DNA of 63,255 nucleotides, the filler included, from Collodictyon triciliatum (Eukaryota), in assembly GCA_043381765.1 (NCBI GenBank). It is 4 parts of 4 records of this genome, joined end to end, with 100 filler letters (N's around TTAATTAATTAA, not from the genome) between each part and the next. Parts side by side here need not be neighbours in the genome. Positions count along the whole stretch, not along the records: positions 1 to 25,648 come from JBHJMP010000417.1; 3 more parts are not named here. One strand, 5' to 3'. The translations under genes were made by a program, and so were the position numbers. The notes under the pieces are model-generated. The model worked only from the letters and a program-made list of their open reading frames with translations, did not search any database and was not told the DNA's origin. Below, in pieces: positions 15,824 to 63,143 of the stretch (position 1 is its first letter; each line of letters opens with the position of its first letter).

Positions 15824-17548
15824 CAGATGGAGTAGCTGCACAATGAACAATTAAAAAAAAACAATACCCCTACCCATCCATAGATTTATGTTAAATCTGT
15901 ATCTTCATTCTATCCCATACATAAATTTGGTGAGTCTGTTTGTTTGTGCACATGTTCGCGCGAATGTAAATTTCCTGGGTTGATGGGAATTAAATGAAAA
16001 TACTAAATCTGTAATTTCCAAAGTCTAAATTCCAAATCTGTAAAATAAATGTAAACTTATATTCATCACACTGGGAGAGACTAAATTGATAGAAGCAACA
16101 TGAAAAAACGCAATTAATAAGAAAAAAATGTCCTTTGTTGAAAAATAACCCACTGAGAGAAAAAGGACACATTCTCTGGTAAATAATATCAACGCACTGG
16201 AGTTCTTTCCTTCTTTCTCCCAACCCCACCACGCTCTGAAGCCGGAGAAAAAAAAACAAAAAAACACACAAGCGATCGGAAAGAGCGATCCTGGGAAGGA
16301 CGAGACCGTCTACCAGGAGACCAACGCCACAGCCCTGCCCCATGGAACGCCCACTGACCGCACGCAAACCGAGAGGGCCGATGCAGCCAGTGCAGAGAGC
16401 GAAAAGGTCACTTTACTACATCCCTTGCAACACAGGTTATGCACCGAGACACACCGACGATCAAGACGCCAGCTGCCACCGACCCGTGAGTGCAACAAGC
16501 TAATAATAAGACAGAGCGAGCTCTTCGAATAAAGGAAAAAAAAAAAAAGACAGAGCGAGCTCTTTGAAAGAAAGAATAATAATGAAGGGAATAAAAAAAA
16601 AGGCTGAAAGGCTCAAGCCACCGACCCACGGGTAGCAAGATAAGTATGAATATATCACTTATCATAAGTTGCTCTGACTCGTTTATCTTCTCTTTTTTCT
16701 TTTTCTTCTTTTTCTTCTTTTTCTTCTTTTTCTTCTTTTTCTTCTTTTTCTTCTTTTTCTTTTCTCTTTTTCTCTTTTTCTCTTTTTCTCTTTTTCTCTT
16801 TTTCTCTTTTTCTCTTTTTCTCTTTTTCTCTTTTCCTCTTTTTTCTCTCCTTCGGTCTCATTCAGCCTGTAAATGGATAAACTTCATTACAAAGGATGTG
16901 AAGAACTTGGTTTTATCCCTTTCAAGGCACAACACTTTTTATGTGACGAAAGTCCAAGGCATATGGCAGTTTATTGCACATACAACCATGGAATTAAATC
17001 TGAGTTGAAGAAAGCAGGAGCTTTGATGAATCCAAGAAGGAACCTGAATAATACAACAGTATGATTAGTATATATAATATGGTTAAAAATACTTAATAAT
17101 CTCATTCTGTTGCTATAACCAATTTATATTTTATTTTTATATGTGTAATATCATTCAAATTGAAAGATTACAAACAAGCTGTTGCCTTGGCCCAGACAGA
17201 ACCCACCCTATAAACCTGCCACCAACATGAATTCCAAAAAAGCATACTATTCACACTTGCGGTGGTAATCATGTTGTTTGGGCCGATATGTTGACTTTCA
17301 GTCGCAATGGCCGTATGGCCGTCCTTTCGAACTCGCCGAATCAGCTCTCATCGTTTTGTCTCAAAATACTTATAAAAAACTATGTGAGTTTGTTTGCCGC
17401 AATGCGCACATTTTGAGAGTCTCGGTAGATGCTTAATTTTACCTGAATTGATTTTATGCATTTTATTTTTATTTATTTATTAAATTGACTGTTTTACTAA
17501 AGTTTTATTAAAATTGAAAACTCGGTAGTTTTCTAAAGGAAAAAGTAA

Positions 17549-19424
17549 AACAAAGACTTTCAGACTAAGAATAGAAAATGTCTTGAGTTTGAGAGTCTAA
17601 ACTCTGTAAAACCAGACTACCGAAATGTGAAAACGTCTCCAAAGTCGATTGTAAAGAATGCGGATGACTATTACAAAATCAACGATACGGTTTTATTGTG
17701 TCATTTTTGGTTACCGAGACTTGTCTGTTTGCAAGATGTTACATATTGAAATCACAAAACTCACAACAATCGATGAAATGATTATTCATTTATTTTTTTG
17801 TACGCTTTAAAGATAGTCGGAGTAGTTTCACAAGATAGACCCGCAAGATTAAAAAAAAAAAAAACAACCATTTACGAGTAAAGATATGATGACTTTTTAT
17901 CTCCATGATTTTCGATTCCTTTTGTCCCGAAAAGAACGCTTTCCGTTGGTTGGACTCTCTCATGTATCACCGTACTTGGCGAAGCAAATATTCACAGCTT
18001 ATCATAATAACATTAAGGGGCAATTTGTAAAGAGGCTAATGCGCTTTACAAATCAAACAGTTCCTAAAGATGAGAATACTATGGAAGCTATTAAAAAGGC
18101 AGAGTTACAAAAGTTAAAAAAGCCACCTTCGAGAAACTCCAAATACCAAAACAATATAAAGAATGGGATATAATGCATTTGCATCGTATCATTCCCAGCG
18201 GTATTGAAAAAGGTATCGAATTTGACGTCAAAGTCAATCCAAATAAGTACATTCCATGTCTGATTTACATGAAACACATTTTTGAGAACATTGTAGCCAA
18301 ACAGTTTCAACCAATCCCCATAAGAACTAATAATATACCATGCATATTACTCTAGATACTGCATGTTTGATAGGTCTATTAGTATCAACTGGAAAAAATT
18401 ATTACTGAAGAATATATCAGGATGCAAAGAGACACTATGGGATAAGTTCTTTGAAATGAAGAAGAGGGTTTTCATCAAACAGACTACAATTTTAAATACA
18501 TGATACAAACAGACGGGTTGGCAGTGTCATTATTGTTTGAAAAGAAAGGTATTACAAATTCAAAAATCCAAATATAACCAAAAAAACCAAGAATATGTTT
18601 ATATAGGTGAGCTTTCCGAAGAGCAGCTATCTTTATTAGCGACAAAAAAATAGTTGGAGTGGACGCAGGCAAGTTTAATTTTGTTTACATGGTGGATGAG
18701 ACAGGTAAGAAATACGCTACACGGCACACCAAAGAAGACATGATAGCGAATCTCTTAAAAATCACAAAATACTCTTGCGTGAGAAAGAAAGGTAGATGCT
18801 TCAGGGATATCTATGGCAACATATATTTACAAAGTGCTGTTTCTTTTGGTCACAGGACTTTTGAAGAGAATCAGCAGTTTGAGACATCAAGAGTATATTT
18901 AATCGATTTAGAGACATAACTGAGTAAACATAATTCATGCTCGGTCGATTATGAAAAATTTTTGAAAATGTGTATCTTTGAAATCAAGATACCAGATAGA
19001 ATTATCCAGATTTTATGTACAAGGAACTTTTCGAAAGATGAGATGGGACATTATGGAAATACGAAAAGAAGTGAACAATTGTTTATGGATCGAATTGTAA
19101 AGACATTTGGCAAGGATGTTGTACTGGTGTATGGAAACTGGAGCAGAAAATCTCGATGAAACATTTTATGCCAACAATTGGAAGGGGATTACAAAAAATA
19201 CTACTGAATCGTTTTGAAGCAATTATTGTAAATGAATTTGGAACCTCCAAGATGTGCTGTATCTGCGAAAAAGAACTGGAATATATGAAACTGAACGGAA
19301 ATTCAAGAAAAAAGTGTATATGTGTCACATATGTAAAGTATGCATTCGCTCAGAAAGCAAACAAAGTATATTCTTGACAAGGGACTTTAACAGCGCTAAT
19401 AATATACACAAGAAAGTTCTTTAA
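17549..19424 (+). pseudogene. Fanzor1 (TnpB/Cas12-family RNA-guided endonuclease), intronless, multiple frameshifts and stops
   Basis: Motifs in order across frames: VKTSPKSIVK..INDTV, YHNNIKGQF..RF.N, FQPIPIRTNNIP..ILLD, YMIQTDGLAVSLLF (~18500-18540), RuvC-I IVGVDAG (D 18662-18664), VLVYGNWS (~19120-19144), RuvC-II VNEFGTSK (E 19234-19236), Zn ribbon CCIC (19255-19266) and CKVC (19332-19343), RuvC-III TRDFNSANNI (D 19383-19385). Stop at 19422-19424. Confidence 0.9.
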
Positions 19425-19477
19425 AATTCTTCAAAAAAACAAAAAAACAAAAAAAAACATACGCCTCCTTAAAAAAT

Positions 19478-19598
19478 AGGCTGTTGGGTCATTCCTGGCA
19501 GCCTTCACCACTACACGATCTTTGTGAAAAAAGCGGTGAGACCTTGGATACTAGCGCTCCAGGTTTCACCAATCGAAAGATTGGTATGCCCCTTCTAG
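19478..19598 (+). ncRNA. Candidate Fanzor omegaRNA scaffold (guide would be the flank starting ~19599)
   Basis: Four consecutive hairpins: 19478-19504, 19505-19539, 19540-19565 and 19568-19585 (GAAA tetraloop). Loop TACTAG (19549-19554) is complementary to CTAGTA (19595-19600). Position is immediately 3' of the Fanzor ORF. Confidence 0.7.
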
Positions 19599-19699
19599 TA
19601 TATATAAACTATAAAATAATATAATAGGAGAAAACGAAAACGAAAGTGCAAATAAAAGAAGGCAGCTAGGCAAGGCAAGGCAAGTACAGTATATTGCAC

Positions 19700-21972
19700 A
19701 TGCGGCGGCTGCTCCTGGCGTGTCTCGCTGCTGGGCTTTTTGTTGTGGTGTCTTACAACATCCTCGGATCCGCCGAAAGTATGAAGCAGCCCACCCGACA
19801 TATCCTTCGCTGTGCGCATCGTGGCTTTCGCTCACGCGCACCCGAAAACACTCTCGTGTCATTTCAACAGGCACTCAAAGCCGGAGTTGACTGTCTCGAG
19901 TTGGATGTGGTTCTGACTGGTGATGGTATTGTTGCAGTGGCACATCCAAAGACCTTCGACGAGATTGTGAGGGCCTTTTTGTTTAGCACTTAAGCTCTAC
20001 TCATTCTCAAGTATCACTTTTTGGGTGTTTTTTCTTCTCAGTGAATACACGCTTCATATTTATTTATTCTTTATATGTTGTCTTGATGATTTATTTTTCA
20101 TCTTTATTCTTCATTAATACTTTAATATTAATTCTTTATATGGTCAGTTCGTGAACCCATCTATCTATTATGTATGTGAAAACCGAGAAGAGAAGCAGAG
20201 GAATGTATGGATACCAAGCTTTACCTCATAACTTGTTGCTGAGCTTGCTATAGGTGCTCGGACACTATCGTGTGAACGACTCGATTCATTTGATGGCGTA
20301 CGATGTCGCTCGCAAATACGACATGGGTCCACCATTTGACTGTAAAAAAGAGGCTTATTTGGACACACTGGAGAGAGTTATCAGCGCACTAACGGATAAA
20401 AAATCAAATCTGGATGTTGTTTTATTGATAGAGTTGAAACCTCGCACGGTGAGTTGGTTCATGTATTCTGTCTCTTATGTTCTCCTCTCTATCATTCATG
20501 CAATATCATATCTCCCACATAAATATGTATGTTGTTTTTAACGAAAATATCGTTGCGACTAAATGACCATTTTGCATCATATTTAAGTAGCGTACTTTTA
20601 TCTATTTTTTTTATTGGGCACGTTTTTGGCTCTAAAGACCTTGATTTGGCATTAATTTTAATCGCATTCATTTTGAATCGAATAAAGGGAAAATTGAATC
20701 GCATTCATCACATTTCATCATATTACGAGCAAAAGTTAAAAAAATTAAACGAACATGTATATTGTTTTTTAGGATTCTTCCGATGCTGAAAATCTTGTCG
20801 AAAAGGTTGTTCAGTCAATTCAAAGATTCAGTTGCTACAATCGTTGTTTCCTGTCTTCTTACGACCATTGTAAATTTTGAATGAATCGAATGAGTCGTAA
20901 ATAACACACTCTAATATCTTCTATTTGTAAAAAAAAAAAAAACCCCCATCACCCACTGGATAATATAATGAGATACTTTCTAAAATATATAGTTATTTAT
21001 TTCATGATTATTATGATTATTATGATTATTATGATTATTATGATTATTATGATTATGATGATTATGATGATTATGATGATTATGATGATTATGATTATTG
21101 TTATGCATTCAATATGTGCAAGATGGTGGGGTTTTGCGTTTAGTTATCTAGCCTTCTGCGAAATTTTCTAATTTATATCATCCCAGCTATGATACAAAAG
21201 GTCAAGGATTTGGATAGTAGAATTCATTGGGGTTACATTTTGGGCGACTATACAAATACCCCCTCAGAAGTTGTCAAGCTTTTAGACAAAGAATGCAGGT
21301 TAGAGAAATATTACCTCTTATATATATATAATTACTTCATCTGTTCAATATATTTTTTAAATAATTTTTTTTTGCTTTATTTTGTGGTCAATTCATTAAT
21401 CCTGACATACCCATCTTCATTTACTGAAGATGTGTTGGATATGAATTTTCCGCTTAAAATTGTTCCCTTCCACAAGAAATAATTAACAAATAAATAAATC
21501 ATACATGGCAGGAACGGATGCCCTTTTGATGCGATATTTATTCAATACAACCTCCTGGTTAGCAGTGTGGTCTGGAATCTACAAAAGCAGTGAGTGTAAA
21601 TAAATGCTTCAAAATGAAATGTACTTGTTTCAAATAACTTATCTATAAAGCCCGATGCTTTTATACTTAAACGTATGTGTTAAATGCAGCAACATTTGGA
21701 CGTTTACTTGGACAGCCGATGATGAAAATGTGATAAGAAACATAGCCACCATGGCAGTAGATGGTTTGTTGGGCTCTATATAGTCTCTTCCGGAATCTAT
21801 TAGTTGAAACCATCGTGTCATCCAATCTTTCCATGTTTTTTTTAACATCCCTTGCTGCTTTATTTATTCATCTTTCTGCCATCATGTATTCACGTCATAT
21901 TCCCTCTTTGGTACAGGTATTGTGTCTAATGACCCAGAGACTCTTGTTCGAGTTATCAATAGCGAGAAGTGA
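19700..21972 (+). CDS. Glycerophosphodiester phosphodiesterase (GDPD/UgpQ-like) with N-terminal hydrophobic segment, multi-exon
   Basis: CAHRG..APENTL..F..A..G.D.LELDV..T.DG...V.H, LLIELK, SSYDH, then AVDG|IVSNDP near the C-terminus. Stop TGA at 21970-21972. Confidence 0.92.
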
Positions 21973-58350: not shown

Positions 58351-61300
58351 ATGGCCTCTCGACTCGCAGACTTGGAGGAGCTGCAGAAAATCACACAGGA
58401 CAGCAACACCATTACCCTACAAAACCGCACAAAGTTAGATCTCAAGAAAAAATCGCTCTCCACCGTCCCTCGTGGAGTCTTTGAGCTCAGCGCTTTGCTC
58501 GAGTTGTACATCTATGAAAACACTTTGTCCTTACTTCCGCCAGATATCTCACTCTTGACGGCGCTATCTTACCTGCACATGAGCTGGAACGAGCTGTCCA
58601 GCTTGCCCCCGGAAATAGCTCACTTGATAAATCTCAAAGAGCTTTATGTTGACGGCAACAAACTCTCTTCACTGCCACCAGAAATATCGCGCTTCTCCAA
58701 TCTCCGTCAGCTCCACATCAATAACAACAAGCTATCATCGCTACCACCAGAAATATCCTGCTTGATTCGCCTAACATATCTTAGCATCTATGAAAACATG
58801 GTATAAATATACTTCTTCGTTATATAAACAGATGATCTTTTCATTCAAGCCACACAAAAATAATAACGATAGACTTTGTAGTTGGAAGAACTCCCGCCAC
58901 AAATCACCGCACTTTCAGAGTTGAGGGATCTTTGGATAAAATACTCCTCCTCTAAAATTATCACAGGAGCCCCTCGTGGAATCACACGCCTTCCTTGCTG
59001 GTCAAACACAAACAACGCCGACTATCATTATATACGTAACCTGACATTTTACGAAGTTCTGGTAGAGTTTTTCTTCTGTCCCAAAGGCATATAATTTATT
59101 TCCCAAACAATCATTAAGCTTTTTCATCTCTAAAATAAAATAAAAATAAAGGATCAAGGAACGCTACACACAGGCTGGGCACCGAACAAAAAGCAAATCC
59201 TTTATGAGTCTCTTAGCTTTCATGGGATGGGCATTTCCAGACTACCAACTAATTTGACCCGTTTGACTTGTCTGAAATATCTCAACATTAGCCACAACAA
59301 GGTATTCCAACATCATACTCAAAATCTACAAATAACAATAATATTAATATTAAATCGGAGGGTCAAAGCCGTTTTAAAAATAGGATAATTAAAAAGAAAA
59401 AATGACCATTTCACATATTTACCGACACAACTATATCGCTAAAGTTCAGTCCACTCTCTTGGCATATCTATGAACAAGGCTTTTATGAACAATGTGACAA
59501 TGTTATCAAAATGCCTGCTTATTCGAGTGATTAGCCCGAAAACAGCTCACATGAATTTTTTTTTTTTTTTTTTTTAAAATAAAAATAAATTATTCCTTTC
59601 CTTTCTTTTTTTTTTTTAATTTTTTTAATTATAAAACTTTATTTTNNNNNNNNNNNNNNNNNNNNNNNNNNNNNNNNNNNNNNNNNNNNNNNNNNNNNNN
59701 NNNNNNNNNNNNNNNNNNNNNNNNNNNNNNNNNNNNNNNNNNNNNTTATTTATATTTCTTCTTTTTTTATTTATTAACAAAAAAAAAAAAAACATAAATT
59801 TTTTTTTTTTTTTTTTTTTTTTTTACAATCAAACATAGATCATACCGTACCCTCCGTGGCTCGGTAGCATGACTTCAATTACAAAGCTGAATGTCTCACG
59901 ATGCGAGGTAAACTCTCTTCTCTTAACTCCTACTACAAGCCAAAAAAAAAAATTAGAAAATTATCTCATTCCTCCCCATTTATATTATTTTTTCATGTAT
60001 TATTTGGAATCGAGAAATGGTGATATTGGTCTCTAATGTTCATTTAGTTTAATGAAAAAGATATTTATTTCCCTCATCGTAAACAAAGTAAAGAATTTTC
60101 AACACATCTCGTATGTGAAATAAAAGAAGAAAAATCAAAGAAAAAGTAATATTCTAACGTCGTGGAAAAAAAACAATAGCTAAGCAGAATACCAGATGTA
60201 ATTGCAAACTTGAAAAATCTTGAAGTGTTGGATTTTTCATACAATAAGGTGGATTTTTTTTTTGTTATAAACTCATAAAATTTCTTCTTTTTTAAAATAA
60301 TAAAACCTATTAGTTCCCATATTAATCCACTTTCATTCATATGCATTGTTTGAATATACGCAAGATACAAGAGATACCATCATTCCTTTCAAGTATGAAG
60401 AGTTTGAGAATCGGACTCTATTTTGAGGGAAACCCCATCCTGAATGTCCCAGCAAATGTGCTTCAGAGAGGCTCAGGAGGTGTATTCGACTACGTTGTAT
60501 CTTTTAGTGAAATGATTCTTAACAAGGAAGGGCGCATTCTATTGCTTGGTGAAGGTGAAGCAGGGAAAACGACGCTACGAATGTCCTTGAAGCAGAGTAA
60601 ACCCGAATCATCACAGAAATTCTCTTCAACAGTAGACCCTGCGCAGAAAAGAACTGACGGTATTGAGATTGAGGAGCAAATTATCCATTTAAATTACAGA
60701 GAGCCCTTTATCGATGCCAAGCTATGGGATTTTGGCGGTCAAGACATTTTTCATGCAACACATTCATTTTTCTTGTCTGGTAATGCATTAACATTGATAA
60801 TCTACAAGATGACTGAGCAGCCACATCTAGAAAGTGTGTCCCAATGGCTCAACATGATTTCATGCTTCTGTTCACAAGCTAGTGTGGTAATTGTGGGTAC
60901 ACACCTGGATAAGTTTACAACCCTGGAAGAGAAAAGCCGTGTATCCACTAACTGTAGGATTGCTTACCAAAAAATGAAAGCCTCGAATTACTTCAGATCT
61001 AAAATAATGTTTTGTGGGCACTTCGTGACAAGTAACAAAACAGGGGAGGGGATATTTGAACTCAAAGAACACATTTACCATGAGTTGGTGAAATTGCCCA
61101 ATGTTGGGAAGCAAATACCAAAAAAATACAACCAGCTGAAGGATATATTGATGAATTGGAGACAAAGTCATCTATCAGTCTCCGTTGATGATGCACTCGA
61201 CGCTGGCAAAAAATTCCAACTTGAAACTGAATCTGGGAAATCAGCTCTCCGATTCCTTTCGGATCTCGGCATCATAGTCTGGAATGAAAAGGGAGAAAAA

Positions 61301-63143
61301 ATCGCCGACACAGTTTTCCTCCAGCCAGAAATGCTAATATCTTGTTTCCGTGAGGTTTTTAACCTCGAAGTTGTCACGAACACTCAATCCACTATAACGG
61401 CTGACAAACCTACAATCAGAGGCGTTTATGAAGAAAAGGAACTAGAGAAAGCGTTGGTGAAGTGTATTTCATCAAAATTTTTATCAATACTACCTTCATC
61501 GATGCCATTATGCACGAAGAAAGTGATGAAGCTTTTTTGTGATTATAAACTTGCATATTATATTGGAAAGACAAGAATAATATTTCCAATTCTTGTTGAT
61601 GATGAAGAACCTTACGGTATATGGGTTTCAGATTTTGTGAAAGTAAAGGAAGCTGTTCATTATATGATTGAATATGCCCATGAAATTCCCAAAAATGATG
61701 TTAGCCACATAATTAGTGATATTGTAGCAAAGCTGAGTAGCTCCTCTAAAATATTGCCAAAGGGGTTATTTCTTAGCAAGCAACGTATGATATTTCCGTT
61801 TTCGTTGATTGATATCCCTGAACGTGCGATGGTGATGAGCGAAAAAAGCGATTATGTCGCATTTATACATTTTGTCTCCAAATTATCTCCTCAGGTATGT
61901 TTGATAAATAAACATAAGGCTTATTAAACTTATTACTGACCACTCAAAATACCCTATATTAAAAAAAATCACGCATAGGAAAATACACATCAACTCAAAG
62001 ATGTTAAATTGCCGAGAACACAAAAAATCATCATAATAGTGAAAACTGTAAATGAAAACGGATGTACACTAAAAGCTTTGGAATACATCGCAGATAAAAT
62101 GATTAAATCTAAGATCAAGACTAGAATTCAGAATGAAGGAATCATGTGCCCAAAGTGCATCGAGGCTTACCAAGAAAAAAACAGAGTAGTTGAATATAGA
62201 TTCTTACTTTGGCCAGAATTCACAGGTACTATTGAGCCAGGTCTCTTAACTGTCAAAACGGAAGCAGGAACACCGCACAAAAGCCACATTTTACCCTCTA
62301 TTCTTGAAAGATGGAGTCCATTTCATTTAAGTGTTCGATGCAACAAAATTAAATCAGTACATGAGATTAAACAGGCTGAATATATGGGATTGAGACTTCC
62401 TACCAATACTCTACGTTTGCATTATGCTGGGACAAAACATTCGAATGATAATAAGATTGAGCAAGGAACGAAAGAGATTAGGATTTTTATTGCATCAACA
62501 TTCCAGGATATGAAAAAAGTTCGGGAAAGCTTTTGCAGATTTGCACAGCCTTGGTAAATAAAATCATTGGGAAAAATCTGTCGTATATACTTAATTTTGA
62601 AATTGATATATAACACGCATAATAAAAATAGCTTCATATTAGCATCATAAGTGCGGCCCAGAAGCGAAGAATTACTGTCAGATTTATCGATTTGAGATGG
62701 GGTGTTTTATCTAAGGAGGCAGAGAATGGAGATGTATCATCTGTTTATTTCAATTTATTTTTGCATACCACACAAATATAAAGAGGCATAACCTACATCT
62801 CATTTAATGAAAAAGTCCAATATACTTACATTTATCCATCTATTCAATTTATAAATTATATAATAATTATTGAATCTTACAACAGACAACTCTCCAGTGT
62901 TTGCAAGGAGTCCGAAGTTCAAAGTACTTTGTCTGTTTCCTGGGTTCGAGGTTTGAAAGAGTTCTTTTTCGACATAAAATATAATAATTTTTGTGGCTCT
63001 TTTAAACAATCTCGTGTGCATCAAATTATAGGTACGGATGGGTCCCTGATAGGAATAATTCTAATGAATGGAATAAGAGTCTAGAGAATGGCGATTTCGG
63101 TTGGGTGAAAGGGTATCGAGAAGCTAGTGTCACGGAGCTCGAG
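58351..63143 (+). CDS. Roco protein: LRR - ROC GTPase - COR - DUF4062; continues beyond the window
   Basis: 23-aa LRRs (LSSLPPEI..L..L..L.L..N). ROC motifs GEGEAGKTT, RTDGIEI, WDFGGQ..F...H.FF, VGTHLD, SNKTGEGI. COR motifs IPKKY..L, ALRFLSDLG, VFLQP. DUF4062 motifs RIFIASTFQDM, RFIDLRWGV, FVCFLGSR|YGWVP, SVTELE. Confidence 0.92.

Follow-up and report, generated by a model that had tools for sequence, protein, structure and literature searches.

A structured stretch at the right end of a decayed Fanzor1 element in Collodictyon triciliatum: probable remains of a guide RNA

A stably folding stretch of DNA that lies at the 3' end of a broken nuclease gene raises the question of what it once encoded. 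At positions 19478-19600 of a stretch of the Collodictyon triciliatum genome (assembly GCA_043381765.1), an intact omegaRNA scaffold of four stems had been predicted, closed by a terminal pseudoknot that would mark the junction with the guide. Here "the window" means the whole stretch of DNA analyzed, 63,255 nucleotides in four joined parts with filler included; it includes 764 N in microsatellite-rich gaps. Having observed the gene context, strand, fold stability and end position of the structured stretch, we consider it probable that it is the right end, encoding the omegaRNA, of a Fanzor1 element that is decayed and non-autonomous. The features on which the argument draws are collected in Table 1.

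Table 1. Coordinates of the structured stretch, the ends of the putative element and the neighboring genes
Feature	Position	Strand	Details
Fanzor1-like (TnpB-like RuvC nuclease) pseudogene, frame-broken	17612-19421	+	tblastn of P0007, stop-to-stop ORFs
Left copy of 12-nt direct repeat	17066-17077	+	TAGTATATATAA; putative target-site duplication
A-rich low-complexity tract	19430-19463	+	between last coding motif and structured stretch; skipped as repeat in contig comparison
Stem A	19478-19504	+	AGGCTGTTGGG (19478-19488) with CCTGGCAGCCT (19494-19504); 11 pairs, 3 of them G-U; 5-nt loop
Stem B	19505-19539	+	TCACCACT (19505-19512) with AGCGGTGA (19532-19539); 7 pairs and an A-C mismatch (19510/19534)
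Stem C	19540-19565	+	GACC-T-TGGA (19540-19548) with TCCA-GGTT (19558-19565); one bulged T, one G-U; loop TACTAG
Stem D	19568-19585	+	ACCAATC-GAAA-GATTGGT; 7 pairs, GAAA loop; -9.0 kcal/mol
CTAGTA	19595-19600	+	exact complement of stem C loop TACTAG (19549-19554); proposed pseudoknot or 3' strand of a terminal helix
Right copy of 12-nt direct repeat	19596-19607	+	TAGTATATATAA; element's last base 19595, or 19598 if the duplication is shorter
Unique right flank	19608-19627	+	candidate guide-encoding DNA if the duplication is counted as scaffold, otherwise guide start 19596-19601, following the Fanzor/TnpB model as described in PMC10711439
First exon of host GDPD-family gene	19670-19993	+	Pfam GDPD, E 4.5e-15; about 100 nt downstream of element end

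The gene context is as originally predicted: a broken Fanzor-type gene immediately precedes the structured stretch on its strand. Used as a query against all protein representatives, a 182-residue piece of the window gene (P0001, with one stop read as X) gave 77 hits, most of them to proteins about 600 residues long with 30-40% identity, and a few to short fragments at 62-70%. P0007, the nearest relative that is complete, aligns over its residues 18-593 with the whole interval listed in Table 1, in three frames and with a joint E of 1e-46. The motifs RuvC-I VGVDAGK near 18650, GNWS, VNEFGTSK (E-TSK), CCIC..CHIC and RDFNSANNI can be read in these frames, the last of them containing the RuvC-III Asp codon at 19383, and there is a weak Pfam match to Cas12f1-like_TNB (E 0.008). 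The gene thus carries the RuvC D..E..D triad and a C4 zinc finger, and it is homologous to solved Fanzor1 proteins via P0007, whose three PDB matches are all Fanzor1 chains (SpuFz1, E 9e-37; PpFz1, 7e-34; GtFz1, 7e-16), with none from the TnpB/Fanzor2 clade. Searched directly against the PDB, the window fragment P0001 itself gave no match; the link to solved Fanzor1 passes through P0007. This alignment, and the restriction of the PDB matches to Fanzor1, lead us to identify the gene, as judged from its sequence, as a Fanzor1 pseudogene. It has no intact open reading frame, the match spanning at least three frames with in-frame stops, and no intact close family member was found either by a word-based P0001 search for longer proteins or by the search of protein representatives.

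Two observations place the right end of the element at about 19595-19598. One is the 12-nt direct repeat, which is present only twice in the window, starting at 17066 and 19596; 0.01 were expected, and two or more copies occurred in 0 of 100 shuffles. The repeat (D13) was chosen after the fact, so that its weight is about p = 0.01 given where its copies lie, and a second, unrelated exact 12-mer repeat (D14) occurs within the same 2.85 kb. The other is how far the right end lies from the Asp codon, 213 nt for an end at 19595 and 216 nt for one at 19598; at 71 related Fanzor1 loci from metagenomes, where right ends were defined by a sharp loss of conservation, the median is 218 nt (IQR 214-224). 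The span between the window repeats is 2518 nt, the inferred ORF begins about 483 nt after the left repeat, and the corresponding medians in the relatives are 2391 and 444 (the 48 of 71 loci at which both ends were found). The structured stretch is therefore found at, or beyond, the nuclease gene's 3' end, on its strand, and reaches the element's right end. Scaffold end and guide junction had been predicted at 19598-19600, on the strength of the pseudoknot; this is right to within about 5 nt, but by virtue of the direct repeat and the Asp-codon distance.

A search of the window for an inverted repeat of the right end, with up to 3 mismatches of 22, returned one match, the end itself. In this the element resembles, by description, MCi-2 of Mucor circinelloides and the Helitron2-borne CRe Fanzor1 elements, which are described as sharing a 3' hairpin and the absence of terminal inverted repeats (PMC3627910; Bao and Jurka 2013). 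The duplications given there are 11-12 bp for MCi-2 and 7-19 bp for the Helitron2-borne elements (PMC3627910), against 12 nt at a single insertion here. The sequence that follows the two 12-mers is also alike when gaps are allowed (17066-17098 and 19596-19626; score 31, where the best of 300 shuffles scored 29). We regard this further likeness as weak because the sequence is of low complexity; it could reflect a longer, decayed duplication like that of Helitron2-borne Fanzor1, or AT-rich low complexity. A 63-codon ORF without a Pfam match (16873-17064) ends 2 nt before the left repeat copy.

Does the stretch fold like an RNA? All four predicted stems and both hexamers of the predicted pseudoknot were found in the sequence where they had been placed. 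A 156-nt plus-strand RNA (19470-19625) has a minimum free energy (MFE) of -44.7 kcal/mol and a z-score of -4.07, and none of 200 shuffles was as stable; for the minus-strand RNA of the same stretch the z-score is -2.53, with 1 of 200 shuffles as stable. The whole fold is therefore beyond chance, and the G-U pairs together with the fold energies favor the plus-strand RNA, bearing out the strand preference of the prediction. Stem A, which alone is worth -16.6 kcal/mol, appears in both the MFE and the centroid folds. The exact four-stem drawing comes to -38.9 kcal/mol for 19478-19620, versus -44.3 for the MFE fold, which keeps stem A, leaves stem B open, and replaces stems B and C by one long hairpin pairing GGTGAGACC..GG (19535-19547) with CC..GGTTTCACC (19559-19570). 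The predicted fold thus stands as regards the presence of the stems and the place of stem A in the MFE structure, but the MFE fold differs from it elsewhere, and the A-C mismatch in stem B had gone unmentioned. At the structured stretch, no Rfam family scored above threshold and a tRNA scan found none.

Relatives of the gene provide a view of what such an end looks like in an intact element. A locus search with the P0007 alignment gave 548 confirmed stretches in metagenome contigs, of which 80 were kept (L001-L080, on contigs up to 255 kb). These loci have intact ORFs of 610-642 residues, perfect 14-nt inverted repeats and elements of about 2.39 kb, and their conserved stretch overlaps the 3' end of the gene and stops right after GGTGTAA (for example L009:5762-5903 and L012:5747-5886). 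Their omegaRNA, represented by 63 distinct sequences, forms four helices with compensatory changes: changes on both sides occur in 22 of 31 pairs, pairing holds in 86.3% of cells as against 44-51% when the partners are slid, and the covariation score was reached in 0 of 500 shuffles. The last 12 bases, which consist of the right inverted repeat plus TA, pair with a segment some 60 nt upstream, with a hairpin enclosed between the two; at the 63 loci this terminal helix is nested, not a pseudoknot, and its match in SpuFz1 is stem 2, described as having a 3' strand that abuts the guide (PMC10432273). At one locus a second match to the model described below lies some 3 kb downstream from the Fanzor gene, on both strands (L052:8859-9022; 50.3 and 46.7 bits), and may be a solo or inverted copy.

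The window element resembles this clade in its protein (30-37% identity over the RuvC region), in its size and Asp-to-end distance, and in having a possible long-range helix with its 3' strand at the very element end; it differs from the clade's intact ORFs, 14-nt inverted repeats and nested terminal helix. It is also missed by the clade's omegaRNA model. Built from 57 of the relatives' sequences, this covariance model (R1) recovered all six held-out loci (L001-L006; E 6.5e-8 to 9e-3), but among its 24 hits in the window, at E up to 10, none lay at 19478-19600, and nhmmer with the relatives' omegaRNA alignment likewise found nothing there. The support from relatives is therefore positional and architectural and not one of RNA homology. 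Two likenesses noted by eye were rejected: one to the relatives' omegaRNA (TTCACCAC, GAAAAAG, AGACC, TTGAT-like), which had no R1 or nhmmer match, and one of a tail peptide to P0007, for which shuffled Smith-Waterman z-scores were all below 1.2.

Other copies of the element were sought in sequencing runs. Two of these (X1 and X2) derive from organisms closely related to the source, their host-gene contigs differing at 9 of 822 positions. On 17800-20800 they contribute 300 and 291 contigs, mostly at 80-99% likeness, from which we conclude that the element belongs to a multi-copy family; within the window it is present in this one copy. Parts of the structured stretch recur in these copies, with differences. 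At 19558 the window has T, where all contigs covering the position have A (3 of 3 in X1, 7 of 7 in X2), and the apical pair of stem C (19548/19558) is missing in all other copies seen. A contig from a metagenome run (X4) carries 19532-19561 as a 30-nt copy that differs at four positions. Of these changes, C>T at 19534 would make stem B's A-C mismatch an A-U pair, so that the window copy itself has at least one stem-weakening base that this copy repairs; A>C at 19548 and T>A at 19558 remove the top pair of stem C; and T>G at 19552 alters the proposed pseudoknot loop. The changes seen in these copies, which cover at least 19532-19561, are single ones; the covariation described above belongs to the distant clade. 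An identical 435-nt DNA contig in X3 bridges 19546-19980.

Summed contig depth falls from the bin 19416-19516 to the bin 19517-19617 (X1, 141 to 25; X2, 112 to 46); these are contig runs in 101-nt bins, so we did not use the drop to place a boundary, and divergence of many copies near 19516 could equally account for it. Inside the pseudogene, X1 and X2 contigs also skip three stretches with GT..AG ends (18213-18355, 18547-18637 and 18703-18909). We rejected a reading of such joints, for example 18213-18355, as introns because the removed parts align with conserved P0007 sequence; the skipped stretches look like cryptic splicing or deleted copies. Searches for close copies elsewhere were negative: a DNA motif was matched by none of the metagenome, viral and genome contigs; P0002 gave 17 pattern matches in genome contigs and 2 in viral contigs, and P0001 gave 12 in viral contigs, with 0 confirmed in each case. 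A 73-residue frame across the scaffold had no homologue.

The element that we propose would extend from about 17078 to 19595, roughly 2.5 kb, without terminal inverted repeats and flanked by the 12-nt direct repeat. In an active copy, plus-strand transcription would read across the nuclease gene's 3' end, the transcript would be processed and would fold into a stem-loop scaffold bound by the Fanzor1 protein, and the RNA would run on into bases from the flank, which would guide DNA cleavage. Such an arrangement has precedent in the Fanzor1 omegaRNAs of SpuFz1, PpFz1 and GtFz1 (PDB 8GKH, 9CF0, 9CER). As these are described (PMC11423790, PMC10432273), they too lie at or after the 3' end of the Fanzor1 gene and extend to the right end of the element; their stem-loop scaffold is about 75-150 nt, as here; a 7-bp stem-loop is constant, and stem D has seven pairs; and the last scaffold bases are paired (stem 2 in SpuFz1). 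The structured stretch differs from them in that R1 and nhmmer, as above, found no match, in that its 7-bp stem is the last and not the first, in that a paired 3' end would cross stem C, and in that its protein partner is a pseudogene. Because the nuclease gene is dead in the window copy, the RNA would matter only if another copy supplied the protein. There is a parallel in the "ghost" omegaRNAs of SpuFz1, which have no working nuclease gene beside them and are described as working in trans (PMC10432273); unlike those, the window locus is known from its sequence, and no intact partner was found.

The structure might instead be mainly a cis-acting DNA transposon end, with the layout of a Helitron 3' terminus, or a recombination site, and not a guide-RNA scaffold. 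We think this unlikely, but several features fit it. The subterminal hairpin, stem D, is 10-13 nt away from the putative end of the element; it stops 9 nt before CTAG (19595-19598), and the next base, 19599, is T. By the definition in PMC3627910, a Helitron 3' terminus has a hairpin about 10-12 nt from a CTRR-3' end, followed by T, and this is what is found here. That account also gives Helitron1 a single 3'-subterminal hairpin and CTRR-3' ends and has Fanzor1 genes often carried by Helitrons, and the want of an inverted repeat in the window would fit. A Helitron would, however, also call for a 5'-TC end and a RepHel gene or family, neither of which is among the features identified; the left repeat copy also starts with TAG, which suggests that the TAG derives from the target; and stems A-C are left unexplained. 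The two readings are not exclusive in any case, since transposon end and omegaRNA are described as overlapping in Fanzor elements (PMC10711439).

A function of any kind is in doubt if the fold arose by chance in the decaying 3' tail of a pseudogene, or if the stretch is part of the GDPD gene's promoter or 5' leader, that gene beginning about 100 nt downstream. The lack of an Rfam family, and of homology to the relatives' omegaRNA by R1 or nhmmer, would be expected on this account, and same-strand contigs of the host gene start at 19626 or earlier. We nevertheless hold it to be improbable: a z-score of -4.07 with no shuffle of 200 as stable speaks against chance, the placement relative to the RuvC-III motif agrees with that in 71 relatives, and parts of the stretch recur in other copies.

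About equally doubtful is the original prediction in its full form, in which an intact omegaRNA carries an H-type pseudoknot, TACTAG with CTAGTA, that sets the guide junction, and acts in trans with the Fanzor of another copy. The complement at the element end is exact over 6 nt, about six extra pairs would bring the four-stem fold near the MFE, and the ghost omegaRNAs provide a model for action in trans. The geometry, too, is a real one: in TnpB (ISDra2, ISXfa1) and Fanzor2 (ApmFz2), about five bases before the guide are described as pairing with an upstream apical loop, an arrangement required in IS607 TnpB and seen in ApmFz2 (PMC10711439, PMC11832414). The premise that Fanzor omegaRNAs in general have such a pseudoknot fails at this point, however, because on these accounts it holds for TnpB and Fanzor2, and the gene here groups with Fanzor1; the omegaRNAs of SpuFz1 and other solved Fanzor1 proteins are described without it (PMC10432273, PMC11832414, PMC10711439).

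Nor does the pairing itself stand out. In 60 of 1000 dinucleotide shuffles, a 6-mer in a hairpin loop of the MFE fold had an exact downstream complement, so that the complementarity alone is within chance. Five of the six bases of the 3' strand (TAGTA) lie inside the putative target-site duplication and would therefore differ between insertions, one other copy has G in the loop at 19552, and the equivalent terminal pairing is nested in the 63 related loci. The pairing together with stem D comes to -12.9 kcal/mol, and a nested alternative without stem C to -35.8 kcal/mol. On these grounds we find the predicted terminal pseudoknot unsupported. TACTAG/CTAGTA is at best this element's counterpart of the guide-abutting helix of Fanzor1, and is more likely fortuitous. 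That a Fanzor1 lineage kept or re-invented a TnpB-style pseudoknot, with the penultimate stem's loop pairing with the last base of the element and the first bases of the duplicated target, seems to us very improbable; if true, it would mean that the scaffold is completed only by the insertion site, tying guide-RNA folding to the target sequence.

Insertion of the proposed Fanzor1 element also bears on its neighbor. Its right end lies about 100 nt upstream of the GDPD start codon, on the same strand, and X1 and X2 contigs cover 19626-20447 with a GT..AG joint (20447>20772), from which we infer that these runs contain spliced RNA. Given this distance, and contigs that begin at or before 19626, the insertion is in the promoter or leader of the GDPD gene. 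Farther along the window, long open frames at 58114-62557 encode leucine-rich repeats followed by a GTPase-like region. Presumably this resembles proteins of the Roc-COR type.

In summary, the stretch is most likely an ordinary member of a known system, the leftover guide-RNA end of a Fanzor1 element in an AT-rich eukaryote. Fanzor1 elements and their omegaRNAs have already been described, and one decayed copy adds little by itself; the strongest claim made for it, a pseudoknot that predicts the guide junction, rested on a premise that fails for Fanzor1. The junction can nevertheless be placed independently, by the flanking repeat and the conserved distance from the RuvC-III codon, and this distance is a simple rule that may aid the annotation of other Fanzor1 ends. 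Since close relatives of the source organism contain the family in multiple copies, an intact copy there, if one exists, would be a candidate for a working pair of nuclease and guide.
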